Part shown: positions 4,423-64,000 of the stretch, one piece after another
How the letters are laid out: every line of letters starts with the position of its first letter
Numbering within the stretch: the stretch's first letter is position 1
DNA from: Spirochaetaceae bacterium UBA1318
Lineage (GTDB): Bacteria > Spirochaetota > Spirochaetia > Treponematales > UBA1318
Reading direction: 5' to 3'
Assembly: GCA_002307015.1 (NCBI GenBank)
Contig: DBTK01000131.1
Span: 723-64,722 of the forward strand
DNA: 64,000 nt
Notes under the pieces: model-generated
Told to the model about the DNA's origin: nothing
What the model saw: only the letters and a program-made list of their open reading frames with translations
The model's database searches: none
Position numbers and translations under genes: made by a program

Positions 4423-4558
4423 AATAATCCTTCTTGATTTTATCATGTGTATATGAGGAATACAACATGGGTTGGTGAGAAAAGCGTTAAATGAATATTT
4501 TTCCCTCTTGCGGGCCATGTCCTAACTTGCTAACATAGGCACGCACACGAGGAAGAAT

Positions 4559-5584: not shown

Positions 5585-5585
5585 G

Positions 5586-6302: not shown

Positions 6303-6379
6303 CCCAACGGGTCGTGGATTTGTGACAGCGGCGTCGACGAGCGAAAAAAGCCTTTTCTGAATTCGACGAGGTAACGCTG

Positions 6380-9987: not shown

Positions 9988-10001
9988 AGGGGCGGGGCAT
10001 C

Positions 10002-19331: not shown

Positions 19332-19454
19332 CTGGTAGGCACAATCGGTCTTGTTATTTATGTGACAGGACGCTAGTATCACTTTGTTTGAACCGAGGTG
19401 TTGAATAAATATCAATTAGAAAGGTACGATGAGGTTTGTTCCTTTTAGGGGATT

Positions 19455-21359
19455 ATGCAAAAAATAAGATATCGATCACTATCAAATCCATTAGCACTTA
19501 TGGACGATTCACCTCAGATCGAACGAATCATGACAATAGCCGCTGTTGTTACGCTATTGGCTGTCCCCATTCTGGAAACATTTCGCAGCCTCGACCTCAC
19601 GGATACTGGTTTCATCCTCACGAACCAGCGTTTTATTTTCACGCACCCTGAGAGCGTATCGTATTGGTTCCACCTCTGGCTCACCAATGTTGTCGGGGGA
19701 ATCATCGATTTGCTATTTGGCTCTTTCGGAATAATAGCTCACAAGATTGCGGGAACCTTTATCTTTTGGGGAACGATGGCGGCCGCCTTCTTTCTCTATA
19801 AGAACAGAGTAAAAACCTCGTTTATTCTGATCGCGCTCGCCGCATCCTGCTCCTTCAATTTTATATTCAAGATCAATATCGTCCATTACGATAACCTTTC
19901 CGCTCTACTCTATGTTGTCGGCGCTGCGATCTTCGCCTCGGCGACGTTGTATCGGAATAGTCGAACGTTCTTGCTTGCCGGTTTTGTGCTTGGTCTGAAT
20001 GTTTTCGCCCGTATACCGAATGTCATTGGGCTCGTTATTGTTTTTGTACCGTGTATAATAGATCTCTTCCATCGCGGTTCTGACATGAAACTGAGGCTTG
20101 GTCTCCGCGAGTACGCATGGTTCGCCGCTGGCGTCGCAGGCGCCGTCTGTGCCGTTCTGCTTGCAATGCTCGCCCTTGGCCACCTGCAGCTGTTCGTCAA
20201 TTCCCTGAAACAGCTGTTCTCGCTCTCTCTCTTCGAGACAAGAGGCCATAATATTGACAGGAGTGCCTATCACTCTTTCGATCTGATACGCTGGCCAATC
20301 AAGGATACGATCTACGCGCTATTCTCGGGTTTTGCATTCGCTCTTCTTCTCGGGGCGCTATCAGCCATTGTCTCACCCCTTGGCAGGAGAAGAATACTCG
20401 TTGCGGCGGTTCTCGTCGCCATGGCTGTTCTTGTTTTCTTTGCCATGGGCCCTTTCATGGCGTCCTTGCCGAGGCACACAGAATCAAAACTACAGTTCCT
20501 TTACCGTGCGGTAGCCGGGCTCTGTTATTGGGCAGTTGCATGGATACTCGTCGATCCCCGGTTCGATCGAACTCTGAAACTAACCGCAGTCATCTCCGTG
20601 TTCCTCTCTCTTGCGCTAAACATCGGGTCGAATACAAAGATTGAGGTCTCCACCTATGTCTTCCCGGTCATGTTTCCTTCTCTCCTCGTCGCGGCAAAAA
20701 CCCTCGGCGAAATAGCGAAAATCAACGATTACAGACCCTTGAAAGCCCTTGCTCTTTGCGTTATCGCGGTCTTTGCAGGAATATCCGGTTTCTGTCTCGA
20801 ACACTTCGTATATCGAGATACGCCATCCATGCGGTATATGGCGACCAATTCGCAGATCCGGGGTGTTTACACGACAAAGTCCCGTGCAAAAAACCTGGAT
20901 GAATTACTTTCAGTCCTCTCGACGTACACGAAAGCGGGAGATGAGCTATTTGTTTGTGATGGGAGCAACCTCATCAACTTCGCCGCGAGAACAAGGCCCT
21001 ATTTGGGGACTGCCTGGCCTTCCATGTATGCGCCACGATATCTCGACATGCGTCTGAGAGTAGCGGAAACCCACGGGGTCCTCCCTACCGTTGTCAGATC
21101 GCGTATAGTGCCTCGACATAAGGCATGGGCTCCCCCGCCATACTCTCAAACCAGGGATTCCATGGGGTCAAGGGACCCAATAAACGATTTTCTCGATAGA
21201 AACTCATATCGGGAGGTTTGGCGAAACTCGGGTTACATCATCTACGTTTCGCAGTCTGCTGGTCCATTGTACAATCCCCCGCTCAGAAAAAATGGAGCGG
21301 ATTCTGTCATTCTTCGTACTACCGTTGATAACGACGATGATGATAATGATTATTCATAG
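19455..21359 (+). CDS. Polytopic membrane protein, GT-C-like (ArnT/Gtr-type glycosyltransferase candidate); start uncertain
   Basis: 634 aa with about a dozen hydrophobic helices, then a soluble tail of about 170 aa. An acidic motif (LDLTDTG) follows the first helix, as in GT-C enzymes. The protein ends in DNDDDDNDYS. Low G+C and AT-rich codons. Confidence 0.5.
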   Translation: MQKIRYRSLSNPLALMDDSPQIERIMTIAAVVTLLAVPILETFRSLDLTDTGFILTNQRFIFTHPESVSYWFHLWLTNVVGGIIDLLFGSFGIIAHKIAGTFIFWGTMAAAFFLYKNRVKTSFILIALAASCSFNFIFKINIVHYDNLSALLYVVGAAIFASATLYRNSRTFLLAGFVLGLNVFARIPNVIGLVIVFVPCIIDLFHRGSDMKLRLGLREYAWFAAGVAGAVCAVLLAMLALGHLQLFVNSLKQLFSLSLFETRGHNIDRSAYHSFDLIRWPIKDTIYALFSGFAFALLLGALSAIVSPLGRRRILVAAVLVAMAVLVFFAMGPFMASLPRHTESKLQFLYRAVAGLCYWAVAWILVDPRFDRTLKLTAVISVFLSLALNIGSNTKIEVSTYVFPVMFPSLLVAAKTLGEIAKINDYRPLKALALCVIAVFAGISGFCLEHFVYRDTPSMRYMATNSQIRGVYTTKSRAKNLDELLSVLSTYTKAGDELFVCDGSNLINFAARTRPYLGTAWPSMYAPRYLDMRLRVAETHGVLPTVVRSRIVPRHKAWAPPPYSQTRDSMGSRDPINDFLDRNSYREVWRNSGYIIYVSQSAGPLYNPPLRKNGADSVILRTTVDNDDDDNDYS

Positions 21360-21569
21360 GACGAGATCCAACTCAAATCGGTGAGTTTAGGGTGATAACT
21401 GACGGGAAACGAGCGTGTGCGTCCAAGACTGGCTCCACATTATCCTGTGTCACAGAGAAGAGAAGCCTTTTTGGCTTCCGTGCACGGGATCGCTTGTCGA
21501 GTTGACAGCGATTAAAATCTCTGGCGGTCCATGACAAACGCAAGATACCGGACAACAATGGGGTAATAC

Positions 21570-22496
21570 ATGAAACTGTCGGTTTGCATTCCGGTATATA
21601 ACGGCGAAAAAACAATAGGCCCGCTTGTGGCTGAAGTGATTGACCTGTATAAATCATATGATCTTGAAATAGTTTTAGTGAATGACGGCAGTTCCGACAA
21701 TAGTGAGACTGTTTGCGAGTCGTTGGCTGAAAAATATCCGCAGGTTGTCGCGATCTCTTTAAGAAGAAATTATGGCGAACATAACGCGGTAATGTGTGCG
21801 TTGAAACACTGTTCGGGTGATTACGCCGCGATCATCGATGACGATTTTCAGAATCCTCCTCGGGAAATATTGAAATTGTTATCTGAAGCTAAAAAAGATT
21901 ATGATGTTGTCTATGCGAAATATCGTAAAAAGAGACATAGCTTTTTCAGAAATTTAGGTAGTTGGCTTAACGATGTTATTGCAACCTTTCTGCTTCGAAA
22001 GCCGAAGAGTCTTTATTTATGTTCTTTTAAGCTTATTAACCGTCCAGTGATTAATGAAGTCGTAAAATATACCGGTCCATTCCCCTATATTGATGGCCTT
22101 GTTTTGCGCGTAACAGCCAATATTGGTTCCGTTTATGTCGACCACCAAGCACGACAGGAGGGGGAATCAACCTACACAATAGGAAAGCTTGTTTCATTGT
22201 GGTTGAATATGTTTATTAATTTTTCCATTCGTCCCATGCGCATTATCAGCATTATCGGGCTACTCACATCGTTTATCAGTTTTGTTCTGGCGATTATCTT
22301 TTTAATCGATAAGGTCATTCATCCTGAAATCCCGGCTGGATGGGCTTCTTTGGCTCTTCTTGTCTTATTTATAGGGGGAATTCAAACATTATCCCTTGGG
22401 GTTATCGGGGAGTATGTTGGGAAAAATTATCTTGATAGAAACGGTACTCCGCAATGGGTTGTTAAATGGGTGAAAAAATATCAAAACGCACAATAA
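21570..22496 (+). CDS. GT2 polyprenyl-phosphate glycosyltransferase (GtrB/ArnC-like)
   Basis: LSVCIPVYNGEKTI, VLVNDGSSDNS and IIDDDFQNPP (DXD), plus two C-terminal TM helices. This is the typical GtrB/ArnC architecture. Confidence 0.85.
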   Translation: MKLSVCIPVYNGEKTIGPLVAEVIDLYKSYDLEIVLVNDGSSDNSETVCESLAEKYPQVVAISLRRNYGEHNAVMCALKHCSGDYAAIIDDDFQNPPREILKLLSEAKKDYDVVYAKYRKKRHSFFRNLGSWLNDVIATFLLRKPKSLYLCSFKLINRPVINEVVKYTGPFPYIDGLVLRVTANIGSVYVDHQARQEGESTYTIGKLVSLWLNMFINFSIRPMRIISIIGLLTSFISFVLAIIFLIDKVIHPEIPAGWASLALLVLFIGGIQTLSLGVIGEYVGKNYLDRNGTPQWVVKWVKKYQNAQ

Positions 22497-22885
22497 AGGA
22501 GCTATTCTCTTTTTATTGTATTGGAATTGTTAATACCGCGCTAACTTACGGCATTTACGCTGGTCTTGTGTATCTCGGTATTTATCACCAACTAGCGTTG
22601 ATCGCTGACTATGCGTTTGGCATTGTGTTTAGTTATTTTTTCAATAAACATATTACCTTTGGCATCGTTTCTCGTACGAATTTCTTCATGATGTTCCGGA
22701 TGGTCATTTCATATGTTCCCATTCTTTTCATAAATATGGCTCTTTTGTGGGTTCTTGTTGACAAAAACAAGGCCAACAAGTATGTAAGCCAAATCGTATC
22801 TTTAGTTGTATGCGCAATTCTGTCGTTCGTTGTACAGAAGTTATTTGTATTCAACATCCACAGCCGGGATAAACATGGCGTATAA
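22466..22885 (+). CDS. GtrA-family small membrane protein
   Basis: 139 aa with four hydrophobic helices. N-terminal FSFYCIGIVNTALTYGIY and FSYFFNKHITF fit GtrA-like proteins. It overlaps the GT2 gene by 31 nt. Confidence 0.75.
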   Translation: MGEKISKRTIKELFSFYCIGIVNTALTYGIYAGLVYLGIYHQLALIADYAFGIVFSYFFNKHITFGIVSRTNFFMMFRMVISYVPILFINMALLWVLVDKNKANKYVSQIVSLVVCAILSFVVQKLFVFNIHSRDKHGV

Positions 22886-23237
22886 AATCACCCTTCAAAC
22901 CAATATCGATGAGCGCGGGCATTTAACGGTTATTGATCATGTTTTGCCATTTCCGATTTTACGGGTCTATTATATTTATAACAGTTCAAATATGCCGAGA
23001 GGGGGACATCGCCATCATAAAACGATCCAGGGACTTGTCTGTGTTCATGGGTCCTGCCGTGTAGACTGGACAAATGGACAGGAATCAGAAAGCGTTTTAT
23101 TGGACAACCCTCGAGAGATACTAATAGTATTCCCTGAGGATTGGCATTGTATGAAGGATTTCTTTTCTGATGCGGTTTTGCTTGTTCTTGCCAGTGAGCA
23201 TTATGACCCCGATGACTATATCGATGAAGGATATTAG
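22875..23237 (+). CDS. Sugar 3,4-ketoisomerase, FdtA/WxcM-like cupin
   Basis: Start MAYKITL at ATG 22875. [22 protein letters not shown]...RGGHRHHK matches the FdtA cupin pattern. At 120 aa it is the isomerase domain only, with no acetyltransferase domain. Confidence 0.8.
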
Positions 23238-23239
23238 AA

Positions 23240-24325
23240 ATGATCGAGTATGAAAATCTGAGGAAGGCCAACGCGCCCTTTTATGCGGAATATAAAGAAG
23301 CTTTTTCACGTATTCTCGAAAAGGGATGGTTTGTCTTAGGTGATGAAGTCGCTCGTTTTGAGGAAGAATTCGCCAGATATTGCGGCGTCAAATATTGTGT
23401 CGGTGTTGCGAATGGACTGGATGCGCTTGTCTTGTCATTGAAATCCCTCAATCTTCTCGCTGGTGGAGAGGTTCTCGTACCTTCTAATACATACATAGCG
23501 ACAATCTTGTCCATTGTGCAGGCTGGGCTGATACCGGTTCCTGTTGAACCAGATATTAGAACTTATAATATCGATCCAACCCTAATCGAGGAAAAGATAA
23601 CTAAAAAAACCTGTGCGATAATGGTTGTGCACTTGTACGGAAAAGCGTGCACGATGGGACCAATTCTCGATATATGCGACCGACATCAATTAAGGCTTGT
23701 AGAGGATTGTGCGCAAGCGCACGGAGCCCTGTACAAAGGGCAGAAGGTCGGTAGTTTTGGCGATTTGGGCGCCTTCAGTTTTTATCCAACAAAGAATCTT
23801 GGCTGCCTTGGTGACGGCGGCGCCGTAACGACAAACAATGAGGAATATGCAAATACGGTTAGGATTCTCAGAAATTATGGCTCCAAAGAAAAATATCATA
23901 ATGAAATGATCGGGTATAATTCCAGACTGGATGAACTACAGGCGGCTTTTTTACGAGTGAAACTGAATCACCTTGAAGAGATCAATACGTATAAACGGAA
24001 ACTGGCGGCGCTATACAGGGAAAATATCGGGCGTGAATATATTCTACCGATTGAAGAGGACGGGTATTATGACGTATATCACATATTTAATGTCAGATGC
24101 TCCCGCAGGAATGAATTAAAGCAGTATCTACTGAAAAACGACATTAAGACCGATATACATTATCCCGTTTCTCCAAATAAGCAGCCTGCATTACGGGGAA
24201 TTATGGATGAAGCATGTCCAATTTCTGAAGAAATTCATAATACCATTTTAAGTCTTCCTATTTCGTTTTATCATACCGAAGACGATATATTGCGCGTATG
24301 TTCGGTATTAAACAAGTTTTCTTGA
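23240..24325 (+). CDS. DegT/DnrJ/EryC1-family sugar aminotransferase (FdtB/WecE-like)
   Basis: 361 aa with [38 protein letters not shown] and [18 protein letters not shown] (PLP lysine). Confidence 0.9.
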
Positions 24326-24450
24326 CATCGAGGACCTACTGGTCACCAGGGATTCCGCCAAGCTTGGCCAAGTCGGCCCATCCGATGTACGTATGCATGA
24401 AGTCAAGTTTGTCAGCCGAGTAGCATAAATACGCTTCGGTGCCGATGGCG

Positions 24451-25581
24451 CTAAACCCGTTTTCCCTTTTCCGCGCAGAGCTCCGCGTAGATCCCGATGA
24501 GCTTTCGCGCGCTTTCCTTCCAGGAGTAGAGCTTCACCCGCTCCAGGCCCTTCGCCCTGAGTTCGGCCGCGAGGTCCTGATTCGTGAGGACGCGGGCCAT
24601 CGCCTCGGCGAGGGCGGAGGAGTCCATGGGATCCTGCACCACGACTGCGGCGTCCCCGACGATCTCGGGCACGGCGAAGGCCGCCGAGGTCACGACGGGA
24701 CAGCCGCAGGCCATGGCCTCGACGTTCGGCATGCCGAAACCCTCCGCGAGCGAGGGAAAGACGAAGAGGTCGGCCGCGTTCAGGAACTGGACGAGGTCGT
24801 TCTCGGCGACGAAGCCCGGAGTTATGAGGCGATCGGCGATGCCGAGCTCAACCGCCCGCTTTTTCACCTGTTCGCCGTCCCAGCCTCCGCCTGCGCACAC
24901 GAGGCTCTGCTTGATCGAGCCGGATTCGACGAGGCTGGCGTAGGCGTTGAGCAGGGTCCAGGGGTTCTTGCGCTCGGAAAAGCGGCTGACGTGGAAGATG
25001 AAGGGGCCCTTCACGCCGAAGCGCTCGGGCGCGGCGACCTCGGAGGGTGGAAGGACTCGGTAGGCCGGGCCGAGGCCGTTGTAGGCGACGATTATCCTCT
25101 CAGCCGGGACGCGGAAGTTGTCGACGAAGTATTTCTTGCTCGTTTCGGAGACGGTGAGGATGCGGTCCATCCTCCTCGCGTAGTTCGGGACGACCAGCCT
25201 TTCGTGGGCGAGCTCGAGCTGGCCGAAGAACTGGGGTATCAGGAGCTGCTCGGCCCCGTGCATGGTCGCCATCCTCTTCGCCCTCACGTTCCAGAGCGGC
25301 GCGTAGATGGTGAGCGGCGCGTAGTGGAGGACGTCGAAGCCCTCCCGGCGCAGGATGGTCGAGGCCGCGATCGGGTTCCGGGGAATGATGAGTTCCCTCG
25401 CCCTGCCGTAGACCGGGTTCTCGCTTTTCGCGTAATGGATAAAGGTAAAGTCGAACCGGCCCTCGTTTTGGTCGAGGACCGAACGCATCATTTCGTCCAT
25501 ATGATGGCCCGATCCTGATTTCCAGTTGTCGAGGGCCTTGGTGAAGACGCCGATGCGGGGAAGGGAGCTCTTGTCATCCAT
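24451..25581 (-). CDS. GT4-family glycosyltransferase
   Basis: 376 aa with FVFPSLAEGFGMPNVEAMACGCPVVTS. It is the only minus-strand biosynthetic glycosyltransferase in the locus. Confidence 0.85.
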   Translation of the reverse strand: MDDKSSLPRIGVFTKALDNWKSGSGHHMDEMMRSVLDQNEGRFDFTFIHYAKSENPVYGRARELIIPRNPIAASTILRREGFDVLHYAPLTIYAPLWNVRAKRMATMHGAEQLLIPQFFGQLELAHERLVVPNYARRMDRILTVSETSKKYFVDNFRVPAERIIVAYNGLGPAYRVLPPSEVAAPERFGVKGPFIFHVSRFSERKNPWTLLNAYASLVESGSIKQSLVCAGGGWDGEQVKKRAVELGIADRLITPGFVAENDLVQFLNAADLFVFPSLAEGFGMPNVEAMACGCPVVTSAAFAVPEIVGDAAVVVQDPMDSSALAEAMARVLTNQDLAAELRAKGLERVKLYSWKESARKLIGIYAELCAEKGKRV

Positions 25582-35922: not shown

Positions 35923-36022
35923 CTGTCACCCACGCTTGACAGGGGTGCTTGTGGATATACCGCCTGTGCGATATACTATGCAAATATTAATACGCTGTAA
36001 CCTGAACGATGGATAAACAATA

Positions 36023-37167: not shown

Positions 37168-37659
37168 CTACTGACTGAGCCAGGACTCCTGCGCCGTCTT
37201 GATGTAGGCGAGAAGATCCTCCGGTTTCGGTTTTCCCTGCAGCAGGGATAGAAAATCTTCCCTCTGGCAGAGGTAGGAAACCCTCGACAGGATCTGGAGG
37301 TGAAGCCGGGCCTGGGCCGAGAGCAGGATGAAAAGCACGAATACCGGGCTCTTGTCCAGGGCCTTGTAATCGATGGGATCCTTCAGGAAACATACGGAAA
37401 TCAGCTGATCCTCCGGAAGGGGAATGAGGGGATTTCTCGGATGCGGGATGGCGATTCCATGGCCGACCGCGGTCGGCATCAGGTCTTCCCGCTCGATCAT
37501 GGCCGAAAGGACGGCCTCGCGGCGCACCTCCGCCGGAAGCCGGATCTTTTCCACCGCGTTCTTCAGCACCGCTTTCGGCGTATCTCCGCCGATATCATAG
37601 AAAATGCCGCCCTTCCTCACCAAAGCCTCAAGGTCAATCCTACCGCTTTCCATGTCCAC
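37168..37659 (-). CDS. ptsN: PTS EIIA (fructose/mannitol/Ntr type), PtsN-like
   Basis: 163 aa. MPTAVGHGIAIPHPR contains the phosphorylatable His of the EIIA-2 family. Confidence 0.75.
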   Translation of the reverse strand: MDMESGRIDLEALVRKGGIFYDIGGDTPKAVLKNAVEKIRLPAEVRREAVLSAMIEREDLMPTAVGHGIAIPHPRNPLIPLPEDQLISVCFLKDPIDYKALDKSPVFVLFILLSAQARLHLQILSRVSYLCQREDFLSLLQGKPKPEDLLAYIKTAQESWLSQ

Positions 37660-39526
37660 TCCCTTTTTTTATCCCCGATACCAGCCTGTTTTGTGTCTTT
37701 TTGAGGTCGAAGCGCCTCGGGTCGAAGGCCCTGCCGAGCGTATCGGCCGCGAAGGCTTTCGCGCCGGCGTCTGCGCCGCCGAGCGCCGCGATGAGGCCGA
37801 GATACCCGACGACGCCGCCTGAGTCTTCCGGCGGGGACGCCCCCTCTCCCTCGACGAGTTCCGGGACTGCCGAAACGACAGGTCCGGCAGCGGTTTCCAC
37901 GGCGACGACCTTCACCGTGCATTCCCAGTCGTCGCCGAAATCGTACTGGTACGAAAAGGCCGACACGTCGATTCCGAGAACCTCTCCCAGGAGGTACTCG
38001 CTGTCGTCCGCGACCGTACCGAGATCCTCGTCCGAGGGAAGGCCGAACCGCTTCCCGTCCACGAGGAATTCGTGGAGGTGGCAGTCCCGCCATCCCATGA
38101 CGGCCTGGATGCTTTCATGGAGCTGCCTCAGCGTGACGACCGAGGGTACGCGCAACCTGCGACGGATCTGCGGCTCGATCCCGTCTATCGTCACGTCGAG
38201 CAGGTAGGCCGAGTCCGACTGGATGGGCTTTTTCACGGGGGGGGATTCCCTCGGCAGGTCCGAAGGCCCCTCGGTCGCGAGGAGCTCGAGACTCGCGTCC
38301 ACCTTCCCGAGGGATTCCCTGAAGTCGGCGGCGTCGTCCTTGCCGATGCCGGCCGGGTCGTTCAGAAGCGCGATGATCGCGTGGATCTGGGCGACGAGCA
38401 TGTTCATCAGGGTGAAGGGATCTTCTGAATCGGGATCATCGTCCGTTCGGTCGAAGCGATCCTCTTCCGCCAGGTCGGAGAGGGCGTTCAGCGCCTTTTC
38501 GAGAAGGGTGATGCAGTAGGATCGGAGAGGACCGGAATAGGCATCGGCCTCACGGTCGTAGGCGGCCGTGATTTTTTCACGCAGCTTTCTGGTCAGCGCC
38601 TCGAACTCGCAGGTGTCGTTGTTCTTTTCGAGCCTTTCCCGCCATTTTTCGCCGAAAAGCTCGATGTCGAGATGTTCGGTGTCGCCGAGGTGGTTGAAAA
38701 GGGCGTCCTTGATGTAGCCCTCGTACAGGGCGCTCGTCATGATGAGTTCGTTGCGCATGAAGAGGCGCGTGAGTTCGTCGAAATCGCTGTCCACGCCCGA
38801 TTTCTCGTCGGCGGCCGCGCTTCGGACATGGTCGACGGACGAAAGGTCCTTGTGGATGAAACGCTGTTCCTCGTGGGCTTTCCCGATGCCGATCGTATTG
38901 TTCTGATTCACGAATTGGGCGATCGTGACGACCGGATGCTGGATTATCCAGGGGCCGGCGTCGAGGACGGCGGCGGCAAGCTGCTCCTCCATGTCGGCGT
39001 CCGGGCCGATCGTGTCGATCGCCCTGAGGAAGGCGGCCTCGAAGCGCTCGTTCCACTCGCGTATCTCGTCCTGACGTTCAAGGAGTTCCCTGGCCGGCGT
39101 ATGGATCAGGACGAACTCGCCCTTCGCCCAATCCCTGACCGTGGCGATGAACCCGTCGCCTGGCTTGAACCCGAGCTTCCTGTAGGGCCTGGCCATGTCG
39201 AACACGGAGACGATGGCTTCCTTCTCTTCGCTCGTCTCTGTGAGGAGGGCCGCATTCTTCCTGTCGTCGTTGATCAGGAATTCGACGAGACGGTTCGAAC
39301 CGAAAAGGCTGTAGTAGATGCCCAGATCGCCCATGGCCGCATTGAGGTCGGTCCGCGGAAGCTCGACGCCGTTCATGAAGGCGCGCAGTTTCCTCGGCTT
39401 GATCGCGGGGGCGTAGAAGGGGATGAAACGATGTCCCGGTATGAGGATGTCGCTCGCGATCTCTTCCCTCGTGGGAACGATGAGGAATCGCGCTCCGGTG
39501 AACGGACTCGGGCTGGGCGAATTCAT
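37640..39526 (-). CDS. Protein with C-terminal pRiA4b ORF-3-like (MM3350-like) domain; N-terminal 430 aa unknown
   Basis: 628 aa. YLLDVTIDGIEPQIRRRLRVP...LHESIQAVMGWRDCHLHEF...YQYDFGDDWECTV matches the pRiA4b ORF-3-like domain pattern. Its 3' end overlaps ptsN by 20 nt. Confidence 0.7.
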   Translation of the reverse strand: MNSPSPSPFTGARFLIVPTREEIASDILIPGHRFIPFYAPAIKPRKLRAFMNGVELPRTDLNAAMGDLGIYYSLFGSNRLVEFLINDDRKNAALLTETSEEKEAIVSVFDMARPYRKLGFKPGDGFIATVRDWAKGEFVLIHTPARELLERQDEIREWNERFEAAFLRAIDTIGPDADMEEQLAAAVLDAGPWIIQHPVVTIAQFVNQNNTIGIGKAHEEQRFIHKDLSSVDHVRSAAADEKSGVDSDFDELTRLFMRNELIMTSALYEGYIKDALFNHLGDTEHLDIELFGEKWRERLEKNNDTCEFEALTRKLREKITAAYDREADAYSGPLRSYCITLLEKALNALSDLAEEDRFDRTDDDPDSEDPFTLMNMLVAQIHAIIALLNDPAGIGKDDAADFRESLGKVDASLELLATEGPSDLPRESPPVKKPIQSDSAYLLDVTIDGIEPQIRRRLRVPSVVTLRQLHESIQAVMGWRDCHLHEFLVDGKRFGLPSDEDLGTVADDSEYLLGEVLGIDVSAFSYQYDFGDDWECTVKVVAVETAAGPVVSAVPELVEGEGASPPEDSGGVVGYLGLIAALGGADAGAKAFAADTLGRAFDPRRFDLKKTQNRLVSGIKKGSGHGKR

Positions 39527-40693: not shown

Positions 40694-43639
40694 TCACGTT
40701 AAGGGCTTTTCCTGGATGTGGCCGCGTTCCTGATCGAAGAAGAAAACAACCCGCGTCTTTTTCTGCTTCACCTCGAAGTACCTGCCGTGGCTTTCGAGAA
40801 CGACTCCGGGATACACGGTTCCGCGTATCCGAATTTCGGAGGGGAAGTGTTCCTCGAATTTCTCCCTCAGCGTGAGGAGGCGGTGGGACCGTTTTTCGAG
40901 CAGCTTGATGAGCGAAACCTTTTCCTGACCGAGGGCGTCGATCTTGCCTCCCGAGTTCGCGAGACGCTTGATCTCGATGTCGAGTTTCACGATGCGGTTT
41001 TTCAGGTCCGAGGTTTCGCGCTCCTCGAGATCGATCTGGTCGCCGACGAGGTAATCCTGGCCGAAGGAGAGTTCCGTCTTGACGCCCGATTCGGTCCCGA
41101 TGTTCATCGTGTCGATGCCCTTCTTCGCCTTGCAGCTGCCGCCGACGAGGGTGCCGCGTTCGCCCGAGAGCGAGAGCCGCCCGTTCGTCTTGACCTTGCA
41201 GTTGAAGCACTGGTTCTTCATCTCGATCGTGTCGACCGAGAGGAGCACGGTGCCTTCGGCGAAGAGGGTGTGGATGCTCGTCTTCGCCCTGACGATGGCC
41301 TTTCCTCCGCCGCGGATTCCCCCGCCGACGGTGACCGAGCCCTCGGCCGAGAGCAGGGCGGCCTCCATGGCTCCGGCGACGATGATCGATCCGCCGGCGA
41401 AAAGCTGGGCGCCGTTTCCCACCGATCCCGATATCGCCACCTCGCCGGGAAACCTGACAGGACCTGCGGCCCTGGTGAAGTCCCCCTCGACGAGACGGCG
41501 GCTTACGACGCTCAGTCCGTTGCCCGAGTAGTGGAGCTCTCCCGACCTGGCGGCTATGAGGACGATGGATCCGTCCGCAGCCTTTTCCTCTCTCAGGCCG
41601 TCGTCGTGCTTGATCGCCATGGGTTCGGCGGTTTCGGAGGGAGGGGCTTCGAGTTCCCCTTCCTTTACCTTGACGACGGCGCCGGTAACGTCCCACCCGT
41701 CCTGAGAGCCGCCGGAATCCTTGGAGAGCTTCGCGACCGGCTGGCCCTGTTTGACCGAGGCCGAGGCACCGGCGACGGAATCGGGAATACCGGTGAGCTT
41801 CACGAGGAATTCGGGCTTGGGGGTTCGCGAGTCCTGCGGGGGCTTCCCCCTGGCGATTTCACGTTCGCGTACCGGATTTCCCTCCAGGGCCTCGCGCAGC
41901 GCCTTCCCGAGGGCCTCGCCGTCGATTCCCTTGACGATGTTCTTCGCCTTGAGTGCCTCGTGGACCCGATCGGCGGTGAGAGGTTTTCCCGCGCCGACCT
42001 CTCGTTCGAGGGTGAGGTAGGCATCCATGCCGTCGGAGCGGACCCTGGCCGAAATGACGGCGTCCTTGTGGGGGACGATCCTGAGGAAAAAGGAGTTCTC
42101 CTCCTGGCTGTAGTGCAGGAGGCCGTCGACCTGGGCTTCGACCGAATTCCCCGAAAACCTGACGTTCTCGAAAGGCTGGATCTCGGGGTCGTTCCCGGGA
42201 AGGCCGGCGAGCACGGTACCGAATACGTCGACTCCAGCCGTTCCCGGTTGGGCGGGCGGCATCTGCAGGATGTTCTGGCCCTTCTGGACGAAGGCGAATT
42301 TCTGGACCTTGGCAAGCGGGAAACGAAGGGTCGAAGGGTACTTCAAGAGAAGCTCGGGTCTTGCCTCGCAGCGTTTCCGTATCTCCTCGGAAACGTCCTC
42401 TGGCAGGAAGGTGACGGCCGGCTGGGCGATGCGGTCCTTGCCCCGGCCCGCGGCCATTCCCTGGGCGAGGGGATAGTCCTTGAGCTCGAGGTTGGGTCCG
42501 TTGATGAAATCGAGGATGTCCTTCTTCACCTGGTCGAGCTTGAGGTTCTTGAGCTTCTTCTCGTTTATCGCGGCGCTGATGTCCTTGAGCTGAAGCCGCT
42601 TCCCGGAGCCCGTACCTTTCTTTGCATAGAGGGTCGCGCTGAGGCCTTCCGGGGTGATGTCGACTCGGACGAGGGCTTCGCCCGAGGCGGAAAGCGGAAC
42701 CGAGGCCAGCGGCTCGTCCTCGTCGATCGATTTCTTGAGCAGGGCGGCGATCTGGCTTTCCTCGAAGATGTTCGAGGCCGGCACTCCCGCCTCCACGGCC
42801 GCCGCGAGAATTTCCGCAGCCTGAGGAATCGGGAGCCTCAGATCGCCGGGAATGAAGTCGAGGTAGGCCGTCGACTTGTCCTCGGAGGCGCGTATGGACC
42901 AGCGGTGGACGGCAAAGGGAATGACGTCCACCCAGTTTTCGCCGATGCGGGTAAAGCCGGTGGTCTCGGTCCAGAGCTCGTTCTTGTCGCGCTTGATCCC
43001 CGAACCGCAGAGGAAGTTGACCCCCGAGGGAGGGGTCGGCGACGGTACGGGCATGCCGAAGATGCTTTTCCCGTTCTTCCCCGGCTTGGAGGGGCTGACG
43101 ACCCCGATTCTGGTTCCTGCGACCGCGAATCCCTTTTCGAGGGTCTCCGGATTGACCATGGCCTTTTCCTTCACCTCGCTCGTTTCATAGGTGACGACGA
43201 TTTCCTCTTTCGGCGGAAGGAAGGGAAGGGCGGCGGGTTTCTTGATCTTCGTTTCTTTCTTGATCTTTTCCAGGCGGATTTCGAAGATTTCCGGGTTGGG
43301 GCCCGAAAAGAAGATCTCGTCGGCGAACGAGGCGTAGGTGTCGGGAATGGTCAGGTCGGCCCAGGTGACCCGTTCCGGAACGGGCTCTTCGGGGGGAACG
43401 CCCTTGACGATGACCGAGGTTATCGGGGTTTTCGATCGCGCGTATTTCTGTACGAGATCGTCGAGCCCGCGCTGGGTATAACCCTGGCTGATGCGGTTAT
43501 CCATCAGCATGCGCTGGATTTTCTCGACATTCCATTCGGCGCCGAGGGGATCGGGCGTGAAGGTCAGTGAAGCCTCGAGCCCCGCCTCATCGATATCGAG
43601 TCGTACCGAACCTTTCGCGATCGATCCGCTTGCGGGCAT
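40694..43639 (-). CDS. FapA/DUF342-family protein, unusually long (981 aa) with repeated N-domain-like modules
   Basis: The C-terminal beta-helix-like region (GSVGNGAQLFAGGSIIVAGAMEAALLSAEGSVTVGGGI...CKVKTNGRLSL...GGSCKAKKGIDTMNIGTESG) plus a terminal coiled coil is typical of DUF342. Upstream are 3-4 copies of a V-x-I-x2-D-x3-A-x-L...I..G module. Confidence 0.75.
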   Translation of the reverse strand: MPASGSIAKGSVRLDIDEAGLEASLTFTPDPLGAEWNVEKIQRMLMDNRISQGYTQRGLDDLVQKYARSKTPITSVIVKGVPPEEPVPERVTWADLTIPDTYASFADEIFFSGPNPEIFEIRLEKIKKETKIKKPAALPFLPPKEEIVVTYETSEVKEKAMVNPETLEKGFAVAGTRIGVVSPSKPGKNGKSIFGMPVPSPTPPSGVNFLCGSGIKRDKNELWTETTGFTRIGENWVDVIPFAVHRWSIRASEDKSTAYLDFIPGDLRLPIPQAAEILAAAVEAGVPASNIFEESQIAALLKKSIDEDEPLASVPLSASGEALVRVDITPEGLSATLYAKKGTGSGKRLQLKDISAAINEKKLKNLKLDQVKKDILDFINGPNLELKDYPLAQGMAAGRGKDRIAQPAVTFLPEDVSEEIRKRCEARPELLLKYPSTLRFPLAKVQKFAFVQKGQNILQMPPAQPGTAGVDVFGTVLAGLPGNDPEIQPFENVRFSGNSVEAQVDGLLHYSQEENSFFLRIVPHKDAVISARVRSDGMDAYLTLEREVGAGKPLTADRVHEALKAKNIVKGIDGEALGKALREALEGNPVREREIARGKPPQDSRTPKPEFLVKLTGIPDSVAGASASVKQGQPVAKLSKDSGGSQDGWDVTGAVVKVKEGELEAPPSETAEPMAIKHDDGLREEKAADGSIVLIAARSGELHYSGNGLSVVSRRLVEGDFTRAAGPVRFPGEVAISGSVGNGAQLFAGGSIIVAGAMEAALLSAEGSVTVGGGIRGGGKAIVRAKTSIHTLFAEGTVLLSVDTIEMKNQCFNCKVKTNGRLSLSGERGTLVGGSCKAKKGIDTMNIGTESGVKTELSFGQDYLVGDQIDLEERETSDLKNRIVKLDIEIKRLANSGGKIDALGQEKVSLIKLLEKRSHRLLTLREKFEEHFPSEIRIRGTVYPGVVLESHGRYFEVKQKKTRVVFFFDQERGHIQEKPLT

Positions 43640-54467: not shown

Positions 54468-54700
54468 TGTGGATAAAATTCACGGTTTTCCACAGCAAGC
54501 AAAGATCGGAATCGAATGTTAACGAATGTATGTGGATAAATAAGCCGTGTGCTTGTGGATAGATTGATATCTTGTTTTAATGTATAGAGATGCAAAGATT
54601 TTCCATATAAATATCAAATAAGTATTTTATGAGGTATCTGTCAAACTGCCTATGTGGAAAAGAAATATCAAGTTTCGGGTAATTGACAGCTTGTGGATAA
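54468..54700. promoter_or_regulatory. Cluster of six DnaA-box-like 9-mers around an AT-rich stretch
   Basis: TGTGGATAA at 54468, 54531 and 54692 is the perfect complement of TTATCCACA. TTTTCCACA at 54486, TGTGGATAG at 54554 and TGTGGAAAA at 54653 each have one mismatch. 54563-54640 is 18/78 G+C by hand count. Confidence 0.7.
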
Positions 54701-54768
54701 CTTGTTGAATGATCTCCCCGCCATCGTTTCCGCTTGCAAACGTAAAACTCGCATGGTACGATAAAAGC

Positions 54769-55716
54769 ATGAAAAAGGTGTTGAAGCTGGTGCCGTTTTT
54801 TTTCATTTCCCTTTTGTCATGCATCGTTCTTGGAATAACCGGTTTCATATTGATGAATTTCGCCTCGATGGCGCCATTTCACCTGTCCTTTGTCCTGAGG
54901 GCCTTGAAATCGAGCCTCCCCCTTTCGGTTTTGGTATCCATGCTCGTCGTGATGCTCTGCTGGTTCGGACTCCGCCCGAACCGGTTCCTTTCCTACCTCG
55001 TCGTGGCTATCCTGGGGTTTCTTTTCCTCGCCGGCGGATCCTGGTTTTTTGCCAGGATTCCTGATACCCACGCCTCATCCTCGGGAAGTACGGGCATTAC
55101 GGCGGCGCGTATAGCCTACGCCGAGGGGATAGCCTTCTATCCGATGGGTGTTTCCCACGACTCGGTCGGCCAGACCCTGGTTGCCGACCTGAATCGAACC
55201 GATTCGCCGCGGCTGACCCTGTACCGCGGAGGAAGCTTCGACCGATCGAAGGGGGAGCTGAGGCTGGGAAAAGGCTCGGACGGGGCTCCCGTCGATATCC
55301 CCGTGGGCGGACCGGCAAAGGCTTCCGACGCTTCTGGCGATGCCGTCTTCGCCCGCTTCCTTTCCGATGCGGGCGCCCTGAACGCTTCGCTCTATTTGGC
55401 AGCCTCCGGACCGATCGGCCGCTATCTTCTTTTCTGCGGCGCAATCGTCATCCTTTTCCTCTCTCTCTGGTTTTTCGCACGACTGACCGCCTGGGCGCTT
55501 TTCAACGCCGCCCTCGCATTCATCGCCTTCAGGCTTTCGCTTGCGGTCTTTTCCGCGCTGAATGACCAGGCATTTCGGCGGATCGCCATTTCAGTTGCCC
55601 CCTTCCTCGCGGTTCCCTTCGCATTCCCCGCCGTGTTCGCCGGTATCGGTTTTCTGCTCATCCTCTGCGATGTGCTTCTTTCCTTTCTCGGCGCCAGACG
55701 GAGGAGCGAGCCATGA
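54769..55716 (+). CDS. Membrane protein with 3TM - periplasmic domain - 3TM layout (LptF/LptG-like topology)
   Basis: Three N-terminal helices, a hydrophilic segment of about 110 aa, then three C-terminal helices. Start taken at MKKVLKLVPFFF; ATG 54709 is also possible. Confidence 0.45.
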   Translation: MKKVLKLVPFFFISLLSCIVLGITGFILMNFASMAPFHLSFVLRALKSSLPLSVLVSMLVVMLCWFGLRPNRFLSYLVVAILGFLFLAGGSWFFARIPDTHASSSGSTGITAARIAYAEGIAFYPMGVSHDSVGQTLVADLNRTDSPRLTLYRGGSFDRSKGELRLGKGSDGAPVDIPVGGPAKASDASGDAVFARFLSDAGALNASLYLAASGPIGRYLLFCGAIVILFLSLWFFARLTAWALFNAALAFIAFRLSLAVFSALNDQAFRRIAISVAPFLAVPFAFPAVFAGIGFLLILCDVLLSFLGARRRSEP

Positions 55717-57485
55717 CCTCGGGAAGGAAACTCGCCAATACCCTGATCGGGGCCTATCTGCTGCTCGCCTCGGTCTGTTTCGCCGCCGCCGTGCTCGGCT
55801 ATGCGCAGCGGGAGACCTTGCCGATATTCTATTGGAAGTGGATAGCCGCGAAGACCTTTGAGCTTTTCATCCGGTACATCCTGCCCGTCCACCTTACCGC
55901 CGTCGCCCTCGCGATCAGCGTCCAGCCCCGGGGGGCCTCGACCTCGTTGATTGCCGCCGTCCAGGGCCAGCTCCTCGTCATCATCGCGGTGGCGGCCCTG
56001 TTCACCTTCCTCGTGGAATACTCCCTTCCGGCGACCTACGCCGACGAGAGTCGGATGGCCTCGATCACGACGGCCTTCAGGAATTCCTATGACGATGCGG
56101 ATGCCGCGTTCAGAAAAGCGGACTATGAAACCGCCGTGACGAAGATCCTGGTCTGCCTCGGCATCGATCCGGCCAATCCCGCGGCTCGGGATCTTCAGGT
56201 GAGGATACTCCGAAAGAAGGCGCTCGCGGCTTCTCCTTCGGGGCTTCCCGTCCTATCGGAAGCCGGAACGGCCGGGACCGGGGCCGTCGGCTTGACGGCG
56301 AGACCTGCCGCGAAAGCCGAAGAAAGCGCGAATGGCGACTCGTCCTTCGTCGCGGCCGATGGCCGGTCGGCCAACCCGGCCCTCGATCTGTTCAATCAGG
56401 CCCAGTCGTTCTACGATCACAACGATTTTTACGCCGCTCATCTCTATGCGACCCGGTCATTCGCCCTCGATCCGGCGAGGATCGACGCGCAGAGGCTGGC
56501 GGCCCAGGCCTGGCAGCGGATTTCGGATCTCGCTCCCTCGAAGGACTCGCCCGAACGGGACCTCTTCGCCAGGAAGATGGAAGGCTACGCGGCCTATGCC
56601 TCGAACGACCCCCTCGCCGCCTTCTATGTCTTCGCGAAACTAAAACCGGCCTACCCGAACGATCCCGACGTGGTGAAGTACTACGCCCTGAGCCTCGAGG
56701 CGGTAAAGAAGGTTTCCTTCTTCACCGATGAGATGTCCTCGTTCGACGCGATCCTGGGCAACGAGAACATCCTCTTCCGGAACGCCGTCGCCGACGGAAG
56801 GACGGAGATGGTCTATGTCGGGAAGGAAGCGGCCATCGGCGGCGAGGAATACTACCGCGACATCGAGGTCATGAGGTTCGATTCGTCGGGGGTGAAGGAA
56901 CATTTCTCGGCCCGGTACGGGAAACGCATCAAGGACGAGCTGCTGCTTTTCGCCATCGACCGGAAGGATCCCACGGTATTCTTCAAGCCCAAGTACTACG
57001 TGGGAAATCCCTCCTCTCCCGTGCCGTCCATGCTGAAGATTGGTTTCACCTCCGGGGAGTTCGAGCTGATCGCGAAAAGCCGCCGGCCCCTGGCTCAATC
57101 GAACATCAGCGAGCTTTTCACCATGGAACCGGTCATGGCGAGGGCAGGCCTTGACGGCGGCGAGGTGAAACGGGAAATACTCTACCGGTTCTTTCTCCCC
57201 GTCGAGCTGCTTTTCCTTTCCATCTGCGCCGTCATCGCCGCCCTGCGCTTCAGGTCCCGTTCCGAGGAACGTCCTCCCTTTTTCCAGCTTCTCGTCGGCG
57301 CCGGGTGCTTCGCCCTCGTTTCCTGGAGGGCTGTCGAGGCCTGGACGGCCCTGAACCGATCCCTGATCGACACCCTCTCCGTGACGGAGAATTTCGCCCA
57401 GTCCCAGGCCGTTTTCATCGCGGTTCAGGGCGCTCTCGTCGCCCTGACGGTCATCGTTCTCGCCGGCCAACGAACGGACGCCTGA
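55713..57485 (+). CDS. Membrane protein, 3TM - long periplasmic (TPR-like plus beta-rich) region - 3TM
   Basis: 590 aa. The start overlaps the upstream stop (ATGA). Helical-repeat-like region YETAVTKILVCLGIDPANP...FYDHNDFYAAHLYATRSFALDP. Three C-terminal helices. Confidence 0.45.
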   Translation: MTSGRKLANTLIGAYLLLASVCFAAAVLGYAQRETLPIFYWKWIAAKTFELFIRYILPVHLTAVALAISVQPRGASTSLIAAVQGQLLVIIAVAALFTFLVEYSLPATYADESRMASITTAFRNSYDDADAAFRKADYETAVTKILVCLGIDPANPAARDLQVRILRKKALAASPSGLPVLSEAGTAGTGAVGLTARPAAKAEESANGDSSFVAADGRSANPALDLFNQAQSFYDHNDFYAAHLYATRSFALDPARIDAQRLAAQAWQRISDLAPSKDSPERDLFARKMEGYAAYASNDPLAAFYVFAKLKPAYPNDPDVVKYYALSLEAVKKVSFFTDEMSSFDAILGNENILFRNAVADGRTEMVYVGKEAAIGGEEYYRDIEVMRFDSSGVKEHFSARYGKRIKDELLLFAIDRKDPTVFFKPKYYVGNPSSPVPSMLKIGFTSGEFELIAKSRRPLAQSNISELFTMEPVMARAGLDGGEVKREILYRFFLPVELLFLSICAVIAALRFRSRSEERPPFFQLLVGAGCFALVSWRAVEAWTALNRSLIDTLSVTENFAQSQAVFIAVQGALVALTVIVLAGQRTDA

Positions 57486-57494
57486 GTTCCGGTG

Positions 57495-58373
57495 ATGACC
57501 GCCGGGCTGGGGAATTATTTCAACAAGCTTCGGGACAGATTGCGGCCGCGGTCCGGCCGGGCCCGCCCGGTTTTCATCGGGAAGCTCGTCGGTACCGCCA
57601 TCGGCGCCTTCGCCGGCTGGTACGGGGCCCTTTCAGGCTTCCTCGTCGGTCTCCTCGTCGATCAGCTTCTCGAACGCCGGCGGTACACGAGGCGGCTCGC
57701 GGGCTTTCTCGCGGATCCCTCGAACCGATTTCCCCATGAGCTGAATCCCGGCGATGCGGCGATCGCCGGAATGGCCGTGTGGCTCGCCGCCTTCGATGGC
57801 GGGCTTTCGGATCGTCAGGCGGAAATCGTCACGTCATTCATCGCGAACCGGGGAAAGGGCGGGGGAGAAATTCCGTCGGGGAGGGCTGGCATGGATGAAG
57901 CTCCTCTGCGCTATGCCCGTGAGCTCGTCGAGGCCGTGTACGACTTTCCCGGCTCGATCGCCGCCCTTCCTCTCGCGGGGAGCCTCGTCGGTCTTCCGTA
58001 CGAAGAACGCCTGGCCATCCAGGCGATGCTCGCCGAGGCCGCTTCGGCGGATTCTCTTGGATTCTCCGAGAAGGACGCCGAGGCCCTCGATTCCGTCGGC
58101 TCGGCTCTCGAGCTCAAGCCGGGCGACATCAGGCGCGAACGGTCGATCAGGGACGACGGCCTCGCCGAGGCCTATCGGCTGCTCGGCATCGATCCCGATG
58201 CGGACGAGGGGGAGGCGAAGGCCGTGTTCAGGAAACTCGCCGCCCAGTTCCATCCGGACGCGAACGCGGGGCTTTCCGAGGAGCAGAGGAAGCAGGCCGA
58301 GGAGGCCTTCGTCAGGATCGAGAGGGCCTACCGGCTGGTCGAGGCGGGCTACTCTTCTTCCCGGACGACGTGA
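57495..58373 (+). CDS. djlA: DjlA-like membrane co-chaperone (N-terminal TM, TerB-like middle, C-terminal J domain)
   Basis: TM helix LVGTAIGAFAGWYGALSGFLVGLLV. C-terminal J domain AYRLLGIDPDADEGEAKAVFRKLAAQFHPD. Confidence 0.7.
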   Translation: MTAGLGNYFNKLRDRLRPRSGRARPVFIGKLVGTAIGAFAGWYGALSGFLVGLLVDQLLERRRYTRRLAGFLADPSNRFPHELNPGDAAIAGMAVWLAAFDGGLSDRQAEIVTSFIANRGKGGGEIPSGRAGMDEAPLRYARELVEAVYDFPGSIAALPLAGSLVGLPYEERLAIQAMLAEAASADSLGFSEKDAEALDSVGSALELKPGDIRRERSIRDDGLAEAYRLLGIDPDADEGEAKAVFRKLAAQFHPDANAGLSEEQRKQAEEAFVRIERAYRLVEAGYSSSRTT

Positions 58374-62618: not shown

Positions 62619-63677
62619 TCAGGGTAGCATATCGGCATTTTTCGGGCAATGCCGGCCGTCCTCCAGCGACGGCCGCCCTCGGGCGGCTTCCAGGATGAGT
62701 TCGAGGGTTTCGGCATAGGAAAGCCCCGAGCCGGCCGCCATCCTCATGAAGCCTGAGTCGGGGGATATGTCCGGGTTGGGGTTCACCTCGAGCACGAAAA
62801 GCTCGTTCTCGCCTTCCCTCATGTCGACGCGGAAATACCCGGTGCAGCCGAGGGCCTTCCCGGCCCTTGCGCCGAGGTCCCTCGCGGCGGCGAAGGGAGC
62901 CGCGTCATCCCCGTTCTCGGGGTCGAGGATCCGGGGCATCAGGACCTTGTATTCATCAGTGTCCTCGGCCCACTTCGCCCCGAAGCCGAGGTAGGGGGGG
63001 AAGCCCGGCCCGGCCTTCCCGTAGTCGAGCATCGAGACGCCGACGCACCGGCAGCTTTCGCCGTTCCCGACGAAGCCCGCCGCGCACTCCCGGCCCGGGA
63101 GGAATCGTTCGACGAGAAGCCCCGAGGGAAAGGCGGAGAGCTTTTTCGCGAGGCTTTGGGCGAGTTCCTCGGCGTCGCGGACGAGGGAGTTTCCGTCGAT
63201 CCCGACCGATCCGTCCTCGGCCGAGGGTTTGAGGAAGAGCGGGAACCCGAGGTCCCCGAAGTCGGCGGGAACGGAGCCGGGAAGGGCCAGCCGGCCCGGC
63301 GCGACCGGGACGGACTTCCCGGCGAGGAGGATCCTCGCCCTCGACTTGTCGAGGCATCGCTCGAGGGTCTCGGCCCGGTTCCCGGTGAACGGAATGCCGA
63401 GGGTTTCGAGCACTCGGGCGAAGGCGACCTCGGTCTCGGGGCGGCCCTCGAATCCCTCGAAGAGGTTGAGGATGACCGAGGGATTCCTATCGCGGACGGC
63501 CTTGGCGAGGCGCGAGGGGTCGAGGAGGAGGTCGGGAAACACCTCGACGAGGTCCGCCCTTCTTCCCGCAGTTTCGAGGGCCTTGAGAACCGCCTCGGCG
63601 CTCTTGAGCACGTCCGACACATCGGGCCGCGCCTCGCCCTTCTCCCGGTTCACGAGAATCAAGATCCTTTCGTCCAT
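62619..63677 (-). CDS. ATP-grasp enzyme of the D-alanine--D-alanine ligase family
   Basis: Start MDERILILVN after GGAGGAAG. LETLGIPFTGNRAETLERCLDKSRAR and FVLEVNPNPDIS (Ddl-like C-terminal Mg/ATP motif). Confidence 0.75.
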   Translation of the reverse strand: MDERILILVNREKGEARPDVSDVLKSAEAVLKALETAGRRADLVEVFPDLLLDPSRLAKAVRDRNPSVILNLFEGFEGRPETEVAFARVLETLGIPFTGNRAETLERCLDKSRARILLAGKSVPVAPGRLALPGSVPADFGDLGFPLFLKPSAEDGSVGIDGNSLVRDAEELAQSLAKKLSAFPSGLLVERFLPGRECAAGFVGNGESCRCVGVSMLDYGKAGPGFPPYLGFGAKWAEDTDEYKVLMPRILDPENGDDAAPFAAARDLGARAGKALGCTGYFRVDMREGENELFVLEVNPNPDISPDSGFMRMAAGSGLSYAETLELILEAARGRPSLEDGRHCPKNADMLP

Positions 63678-63716
63678 GCTTCCTCCGGAAAACCCTCGGC
63701 CCGTTCGGGACGGTGC

Positions 63717-63745
63717 TTGCCGACGATTTTCAATCGCCGTATACT
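63717..63745 (+). promoter_or_regulatory. Sigma-70-like promoter candidate placed for a near-leaderless transcript
   Basis: TTGCCG (63717-63722), 17-nt spacer, TATACT (63740-63745). ATG 63753 begins 8 nt after the -10 hexamer. Confidence 0.35.
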
Positions 63746-63752
63746 CTCGGGC

Positions 63753-64000
63753 ATGATTATCGGCATTACCTACGACCTCATCGACGACTACCTCGCGGCG
63801 GGCATGGATCCCGAGGCGGCCGCCGAGTTCGATACGAAGGAAACCATCGACGGCCTCGACGATGCCCTGAAAAGCCTCGGCCATGAGACCGACCGGATCG
63901 GGAACGCCAAGAGCCTCATCGGCCGGCTCGCCAGGGGCGACCGATGGGACTTCGTCTTCAACGTCTGCGAGGGGGAGAGGGGCTACGCCCGGGAGGCCCA
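63753..64000 (+). CDS. Second Ddl-family ATP-grasp enzyme, N-terminal part (runs off the window)
   Basis: My own translation gives MIIGITYDLIDDYLAAGMDPEAAAEFDTKETIDGLDDALKSLGHETDRIGN...WDFVFNVCEGERGYAREA, open to nt 64000. The layout matches the N-domain of the divergent paralog. Confidence 0.6.
   Translation, partial: MIIGITYDLIDDYLAAGMDPEAAAEFDTKETIDGLDDALKSLGHETDRIGNAKSLIGRLARGDRWDFVFNVCEGERGYAREA

Follow-up and report, generated by a model that had tools for sequence, protein, structure and literature searches.

A conserved chromosomal cluster of predicted DnaA boxes that is probably not the replication origin in divergent uncultured bacteria

The locus and its genes

We analyzed a 64-kb stretch of DNA (the window), corresponding to positions 796 to 64795 of a 75.7-kb wetland metagenome contig, and compared it with related loci, which carry the labels L069 to L080. 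Proteins identical to those encoded here are also found in NCBI and in Logan. The site of interest spans 233 bp, from 54468 to 54700, and consists of DnaA-box-like 9-mers. It is housed in a 247-bp spacer that runs from the stop codon of a gene for an OmpR-family winged-helix (wHTH) protein to the annotated start of the next gene (Table 1).

The left part of the window begins with a polysaccharide-synthesis cluster of about 37 kb, which is followed on the minus strand by genes for FapA, Lgt and a MinD/ParA-like ATPase. From there toward the site lie CtpB, RsmE, WecG, a sigma-54 activator, SpoU (minus strand), SDR, STAS, CesT-like, PspA and wHTH genes. The wHTH gene is the last of the SDR-STAS-CesT-like-PspA-wHTH run, and its stop codon is 5 nt before box 1. 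Its product has no detectable Pfam receiver domain, and the gene always follows those for PspA and the CesT-like protein. To the right of the site are genes for two membrane proteins of 315 and 590 aa and a DjlA-like J-domain protein, then murA (minus strand) and thrC, and farther on two Ddl genes.

Several other features of the window deserve mention in their own right. Within the polysaccharide-synthesis cluster, positions 19400 to 24400 form a low-G+C island (41 to 50%, against about 60%) with a third-position G+C of 0.38 to 0.54, which suggests horizontally acquired glycan genes. The plus-strand open reading frame at 24439 to 25518 has a first-position G+C of 0.87 and a third-position G+C of 0.63, a wrong-frame signature; the overlapping minus-strand frame at 24451 to 25581 may be the real gene. 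Two minus-strand genes, at 37640 to 39526 and 40694 to 43639, encode a 628-aa protein with a C-terminal PRiA4_ORF3 domain and a 981-aa FapA-family protein, which is unusually long; the MinD/ParA-like ATPase beside them (380 aa) is not a ParAB partition pair. At the right end (62619 to 64000 and beyond), the two D-Ala-D-Ala-ligase-family genes stand back to back, and farther along the contig is a gene for a 1871-aa Glyco_hydro_77 protein. No rRNA, tRNA or Rfam match was found in the 64-kb window, which thus offers no phylogenetic marker; FapA, a Rpn/TIGR01784 protein and the TIGR04133/4 pair hint at Spirochaetota, but we place no weight on these hints.

The two membrane proteins directly downstream of the site had been described as LptF/G-like in the original prediction. 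For the 590-aa protein, Pfam LptF_LptG matches at E = 0.029, and TPR matches were found in PDB sequences. Its predicted structure (pLDDT 60) comprises transmembrane helices, TPR repeats, a beta domain and further transmembrane helices, and a Foldseek search against the PDB gave LptG chains as the best matches (E = 4e-4), with low TM-scores. Since the models of the downstream proteins are of low confidence (pLDDT 60 and 54), the LptG-like match is suggestive only, and the LptF/G-like label, weakly supported by the Pfam and fold matches, is plausible for the pair. The 590-aa protein appears to carry TPR repeats inserted in an LptG-type permease, and it is paired with the 315-aa and DjlA-like proteins.

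Table 1. Coordinates of the features at and around the DnaA-box cluster
Feature	Coordinates	Strand	Description
OmpR-family winged-helix protein, 211 aa	53827..54462	+	Pfam Trans_reg_C only; weak NCBIfam OmpR-family matches
DnaA box 1	54468..54476	-	Perfect, TTATCCACA on the minus strand
DnaA box 2	54486..54494	+	TTTTCCACA, one mismatch; the only inverted box
DnaA box 3	54531..54539	-	Perfect, TTATCCACA
DnaA box 4	54554..54562	-	CTATCCACA, one mismatch
A+T-rich spacer between left and right box groups	54563..54640		18/78 G+C
DnaA box 5	54653..54661	-	TTTTCCACA, one mismatch
DnaA box 6 and weak 9-mer	54692..54711	-	Perfect box at 54692-54700, 2 bp, weak box-like 9-mer at 54703-54711
Putative sigma-70-like promoter	54734..54762	+	TTGCAA (54734-54739), 17 nt, TACGAT (54757-54762)
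First downstream gene, 315-aa polytopic membrane protein	54769..55716	+	No Pfam or NCBIfam family
Second downstream gene, 590-aa membrane protein with TPR	55713..57485	+	Weak LptG-like fold
Third downstream gene, DjlA-like membrane protein with J domain	57495..58373	+	Pfam DnaJ; NCBIfam DjlA below cut-off

A dense cluster of DnaA boxes around an A+T-rich spacer

The cluster contains six DnaA boxes, three of them perfect (that is, TTATCCACA) and three with one mismatch. The three perfect boxes are the only ones in the 64 kb, where 0.08 would be expected, and none of 100 shuffled sequences reached three. When one mismatch was allowed, six boxes fell within 271 bp, compared to 0.08 in the shuffles, and the remaining four one-mismatch matches in the window are scattered singletons. 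All six boxes are where the original prediction had placed them, and its description of their arrangement also held: all but one of the six face the same way, and boxes 1 and 2 are inverted relative to each other, 9 bp apart. The spacings between the strong boxes are 63, 23, 99 and 39 bp. Box 6 and the weak box-like 9-mer that follows it contain a 14-mer, TGTGGATAACTTGT, that recurs in relatives.

Boxes 4 and 5 are separated by an A+T-rich tract whose G+C content, earlier counted by hand, was exact on recount. The lowest-G+C 78-bp stretch of the whole window starts at 54560 (17/78), while other intergenic spacers in the window reach 21 to 24/78, so the tract is extreme in composition but not unique. 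It lies 12 bp from box 5, is defined by a measure of composition only, and holds an inverted box with two mismatches (54599 to 54607).

The E. coli IHF consensus WATCARNNNNTTR, which may not transfer to this organism, is matched nowhere in the cluster. We also considered, and rejected, an RNA gene in the spacer, since a relaxed Rfam search of the cluster returned no match and single-strand folding of it showed nothing unusual (z = -0.5). A candidate half-site before box 1 (TGTTAACAA) was likewise dismissed, as it consists of the terminal Cys codon and the stop codon of the wHTH gene.

The cluster is conserved at one syntenic position in divergent relatives

We collected relatives from the contigs of homologues of the wHTH and 590-aa proteins and from a metagenome scan, which yielded seven non-redundant lineages (L072 and L076 are the same locus, as are L078 and L080). 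Both protein families are small: among 5.8 billion proteins, the wHTH family has 9 homologues and the 590-aa family has four members, a number that additional searches seeded with the 590-aa protein and with its alignment did not raise. When genome contigs were scanned with the wHTH alignment, the only matches were distant response regulators of Flavobacteriaceae, at about 25% identity (L003 to L068), which are irrelevant here.

All seven lineages, which range from 25 to 63% in G+C content, have a comparable cluster at one syntenic position, where the STAS or PspA-wHTH operon precedes it and the LptF/G-like pair follows. The closest relatives to the window, judged by the wHTH protein, are L069 (86% identity) and L071 and L070 (46% each), and in these three loci boxes 1, 2, 3, 4 and 6 are in register while the spacers have diverged. 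Box 1 is identical in L069 and L071 and has one mismatch in L070; box 2 is kept in L069 and L070 and reads TTTTACACA in L071; and box 3 is identical in all three, despite divergence of the 36-nt spacer that precedes it. At the position of box 4, L071 has GTTTCCACA. Box 5 is degenerate in that locus (TGGGAGAAG on the plus strand), with its 5' flank AAACTGYCTA retained. The inverted pair formed by boxes 1 and 2 is conserved across the window's clade.

The comparison between the window and L071 provides a footprint of the boxes. The flanking proteins of these two loci are 46 to 52% identical, and identity is 87% in the boxes (47 of 54 positions) and 41% in the spacers (90 of 217 positions outside the boxes; Fisher p = 7e-10). 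By this measure, the cluster is under selection.

The more distant relatives L072, L073, L077 and L078 (29, 38, 53 and 45% G+C, respectively) share the synteny CtpB-RsmE-WecG-sigma54-SpoU-STAS / LptF-like-590-like, and a significant box cluster sits at the corresponding position in each of them. The common layout consists of left and right box groups around an A+T-rich spacer of about 50 to 200 bp, the sequence of which is not conserved. At the end of the right group, TGTGGATAA-CT-TGTnnnnnn combines a strong box with a weak one placed 2 bp beyond it. The 14-mer at box 6 recurs in L069, L071, L072 and L073, and none of the 66 unrelated loci contains it. The DnaA-box consensus is TT(A/T)TNCACA, with a degenerate position 3; among the 23 boxes with at most one mismatch found across the lineages, 12 are perfect and 7 are TTTTCCACA, with the substitution at position 3, and 21 of the 23 share one orientation. 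In L078 the boxes have degenerated, and L075 lacks them.

Judged by this pattern of conservation, the site is clearly functional. From the motif we infer that DnaA is the protein that binds it, and the footprint, the synteny and the way in which the boxes vary together give strong support to a functional site that would be read by DnaA.

A putative promoter at a fixed distance from the last box

The spacer also contains a putative sigma-70-like promoter that ends 6 nt before the ATG at 54769. A scan for consensus promoters and terminators was uninformative, and it missed this element, whose hexamers match the consensus at only 4/6 and 5/6 positions. The layout is identical in L071 (TTGCAT, 17 nt, TACGAT, 6 nt, ATG). 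The ATG at 54769 is conserved in L071, and the one chosen by the metagenome annotation, at 54709 (335 aa), is not. Because only the ATG at 54769 and the promoter are conserved in L071, the annotated start lies too far upstream and the product is 315 aa long. The earlier assertion that the last box ends 68 nt before the ATG at 54769 was correct, and the comparison with L071 identifies this ATG as the true start. As the promoter ends 6 nt before the conserved ATG, the arrangement suggests a leaderless mRNA that begins at 54769.

Both in the window and in L071, the last strong box lies 33 to 34 bp upstream of the -35 hexamer. The promoter layout differs in the low-G+C relatives and is not conserved outside the window's clade. 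In L073, the boxes are not at a promoter, and the cluster lies between convergent genes.

The cluster is probably not the chromosomal origin

Boxes together with an A+T-rich tract make an origin-like layout, and one alternative is that the cluster is an oriC displaced from dnaA, in which DnaA would bind boxes 5 and 6 and melt the A+T-rich tract 5' of them. In E. coli, R1 adjoins the unwinding element, and the tract here lies on the same relative side of boxes 5 and 6. An origin would be consistent with that geometry, with dense consensus boxes next to the most A+T-rich 78 bp of the window, with conservation across deep divergence, and with the position between convergent genes in L073, where its action would not depend on a promoter. 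The tract, however, is not at one edge of the box array but has boxes to its left and right, and the boxes are degenerate or missing in two relatives (L078 and L075), which would be unexpected for an essential element. The gene content also argues against an origin: as the original prediction had noted for the window, there is no dnaA, dnaN, gyrB or parAB, and neither these nor gidA or other origin-proximal genes occur along the 75.7-kb contig or, for the related loci, within 10 kb. Also as stated earlier, the genes on the left run toward the site (35 of 45, or 79% of coding bases) and would be head-on to replication from it; on the right, four genes point each way. In every related locus, the flanking operons pass straight across the site. 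Some 15% of origins have no detectable basal unwinding system (BUS), so that a missing DnaA-trio array is weak evidence against an origin. When we applied the published BUS rules (a box, a spacer of at most 16 bp and at least three NAN trios; PMC8287927) to the window and its relatives, only chance-level runs were found, which never exceeded the three-repeat minimum and adjoined different boxes in different lineages.

A further line of evidence is strand asymmetry, which was read mainly from the relatives, as skew in the window is weak and only 8 genes (about 9 kb) lie to the right of the site. GC skew in the window depends on the coding strand, with a strand term of -0.18 and a side term of 0.02 ± 0.04, and is powerless alone, so we used T-A skew at fourfold sites together with the relatives. 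The strand-independent fourfold-site skews do not flip at the site: T-A skew is about +0.13 on the left and about +0.18 on the right, and G-C skew is about +0.03 and about +0.09, respectively. In L072, where skew is very strong, GC skew at third codon positions (in plus-strand coordinates) is +0.21 to +0.76 on the left and +0.56 to +0.74 on the right. The sole minus-strand gene in that locus, SpoU on the left, is also positive (+0.69), which shows that the bias follows the replication strand and not the coding strand. In L078 (contigs of 0.9 and 1.6 Mb), all 20 of the 1-kb intervals have positive skew, and third positions of minus-strand genes give +0.14 on the left and +0.30 and +0.26 on the right. 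Bulk GC skew and third-position GC skew thus keep one sign across the orthologous clusters of these two relatives, which are not at a skew switch. Given this uniform skew, the lack of a flip in the window, the genes directed at the site and the lack of a BUS array, the proposal of a cryptic oriC was not supported; the cluster is probably not the replication origin, and on these indirect arguments we regard the displaced-oriC account as improbable.

DnaA-binding cluster, control locus or operator of another regulator

Another account holds that the boxes form the operator array of a different transcription factor with a DnaA-box-like motif, either the adjacent OmpR-family wHTH protein or an unknown regulator. 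In its favor, the end of the wHTH gene and box 1 are 5 nt apart in four lineages, and a box-like 13-mer before the WecA-like gene adjoins a TTGACA hexamer. The cluster is, however, kept in L072, L077 and L078, where it directly follows the STAS gene and no CesT-like, PspA or wHTH gene is adjacent; this persistence tells against the earlier suggestion that the array belongs to the neighboring wHTH protein. Proteins of the OmpR family usually bind direct repeats in tandem, spaced by one helical turn, and the strong-box spacings found here are different. In addition, 12 of the 23 sites match the universal DnaA box at 9/9 positions, and the main variant is a known tolerated one. The shared 13-mer does exist, as had been claimed: GTGCTTGTGGATA occurs at 35945 and, at box 4, at 54549. 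As a possible hint of an operator it amounts to one pair of copies, with a one-mismatch box inside the shared sequence. Together, these points make the operator account highly improbable. The region upstream of the WecA-like gene (35935 to 35980) has a layout of its own, in which TTGACA is followed by GTGCTTGTGGATA and the box overlaps a possible -35 element for TATACT.

The reading that we favor, and consider likely, is that of a conserved chromosomal DnaA-box cluster that is not an origin and is predicted to serve as a docking or regulatory site for DnaA. Among the possibilities raised in the original prediction, a datA/DARS-like DnaA-binding locus or control of the downstream genes by DnaA fits best, given the footprint, the degeneracy of the boxes and the fixed distance to the promoter. 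Under a related but narrower account, the site would be a dedicated datA/DARS-type locus for control of DnaA activity, or purely a titration sink, with incidental effects on the neighboring genes. Such loci have precedents in datA, DARS and the B. subtilis DnaA-box clusters (PMC5742627, PMC3245932). The two box groups of fixed orientation around a bendable A+T-rich spacer in every lineage would suit a locus of this kind, as would the inverted pair conserved in the window's clade and the L073 cluster, which is intact, with three perfect boxes, and has no adjacent promoter. The specific box geometries of datA and DARS are not matched, however, and the cluster has no IHF-type site, judged by an E. 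coli consensus that may not apply here. The constant promoter spacing shared by the window and L071 points to an additional role in transcription, and we consider this account rather unlikely. A wider formulation, in which the site is a dedicated replication-control DNA element, either of the datA/DARS class acting on DnaA or a silent second origin like the Pseudomonas oriCII, may be entertained tentatively, as a fairly unlikely possibility.

How the cluster might act

In the docking and regulatory reading, the three consensus boxes would hold DnaA at high affinity, and the one-mismatch boxes, together with weak 9-mers that follow strong boxes at a distance of 2 bp (an 11-bp phase), would support short ATP-DnaA oligomers that extend in one direction. 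Boxes 1 to 4 and boxes 5 and 6 would act as two groups joined by a flexible A+T-rich spacer. From the right-hand group, situated just upstream of the -35 hexamer, a DnaA oligomer could spread along phased weak sites toward the promoter, which would drive an envelope operon encoding the LptF/G-like permease pair and the DjlA-like J-domain protein. Occupancy of the boxes by DnaA most likely modulates the promoter, and the whole cluster would also sequester DnaA, as the non-origin clusters of B. subtilis do.

The arrangement in L073 bears on how far promoter control could extend. There, an inserted operon with a G+C content of 31 to 42%, like that of its neighbors, separates the intact cluster from the LptF/G-like genes. 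Because the L073 cluster lies between convergent genes, promoter control is not the sole or universal role, and the cluster appears to behave as an autonomous predicted DnaA-binding module. The inserted operon itself (1918 to 3238 of L073, 1.3 kb, minus strand) encodes YbjQ, a zf-HC2 anti-sigma factor and an ECF sigma factor, and it directly follows the last box.

Significance

Most work on DnaA-box clusters outside origins has been done in a small number of model species. That one such cluster stays at the same syntenic position in highly divergent genomes of uncultured bacteria suggests that docking of DnaA outside the origin is an old, selectable feature. What is unusual here is the depth of conservation combined with an origin-like layout. 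The location points to a candidate link between the potential for replication initiation and an envelope (LptF/G-like) operon. Should the site prove to be a replication-control element, its two-group, one-orientation layout would have been preserved while G+C content drifted from 25 to 63%; it would be among the few recognized outside the Proteobacteria and Firmicutes, and the first recognized by phylogenetic footprinting alone in uncultured organisms.

Box density and A+T richness by themselves would have led to a miscall of this site as oriC, and third-codon-position skew in low-G+C relatives offers a cheap guard against such miscalls on metagenomic contigs. The L072 locus (positions 1 to 11231, 29% G+C) has a third-position GC skew of about +0.6 to +0.76 that is independent of the coding strand, which makes it useful for reading the local direction of replication.

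Comparison with known systems

The closest parallels are the DnaA-box clusters of B. subtilis, some of which regulate neighboring genes and which together restrain initiation (PMC3245932). Like them, the cluster described here is intergenic and comprises several consensus-like boxes outside oriC. Binding and phenotypes have been demonstrated for the B. subtilis clusters, whereas binding here is predicted from sequence, in an uncultured lineage. The present cluster also differs in its fixed two-group layout around an A+T-rich spacer, with nearly all boxes in one orientation.

The E. coli loci datA, DARS1 and DARS2 act on DnaA rather than as origins (PMC5742627, PMC4585315), and they too are short non-coding loci with a few boxes in defined orientation, at a position conserved among relatives. 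Unlike the cluster here, in which the E. coli IHF consensus is lacking, datA and DARS2 need sites for IHF (and Fis). The box geometries of datA and DARS could not be matched to ours, and these loci are defined by their functions, ATP hydrolysis and ADP release.

In P. aeruginosa, DnaA bound at oriCII regulates gidAB-parAB (PMC13438810). That site resembles ours as an origin-like DnaA-box cluster away from the working origin, with its boxes before a promoter. It adjoins gidA-parAB near the true origin, however, while the neighbor here is the LptF/G-like operon and no origin-linked genes are nearby.

With a canonical oriC that has a basal unwinding system, the cluster shares consensus boxes beside an A+T-rich tract and a strong and a weak box 2 bp apart (PMC8287927). 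In contrast to such an origin, its trio runs do not rise above three repeats, and a skew switch, outward-pointing genes and linkage to dnaA and dnaN are all lacking. The weak box, moreover, lies beyond the strong box, on the side away from the A+T-rich tract.
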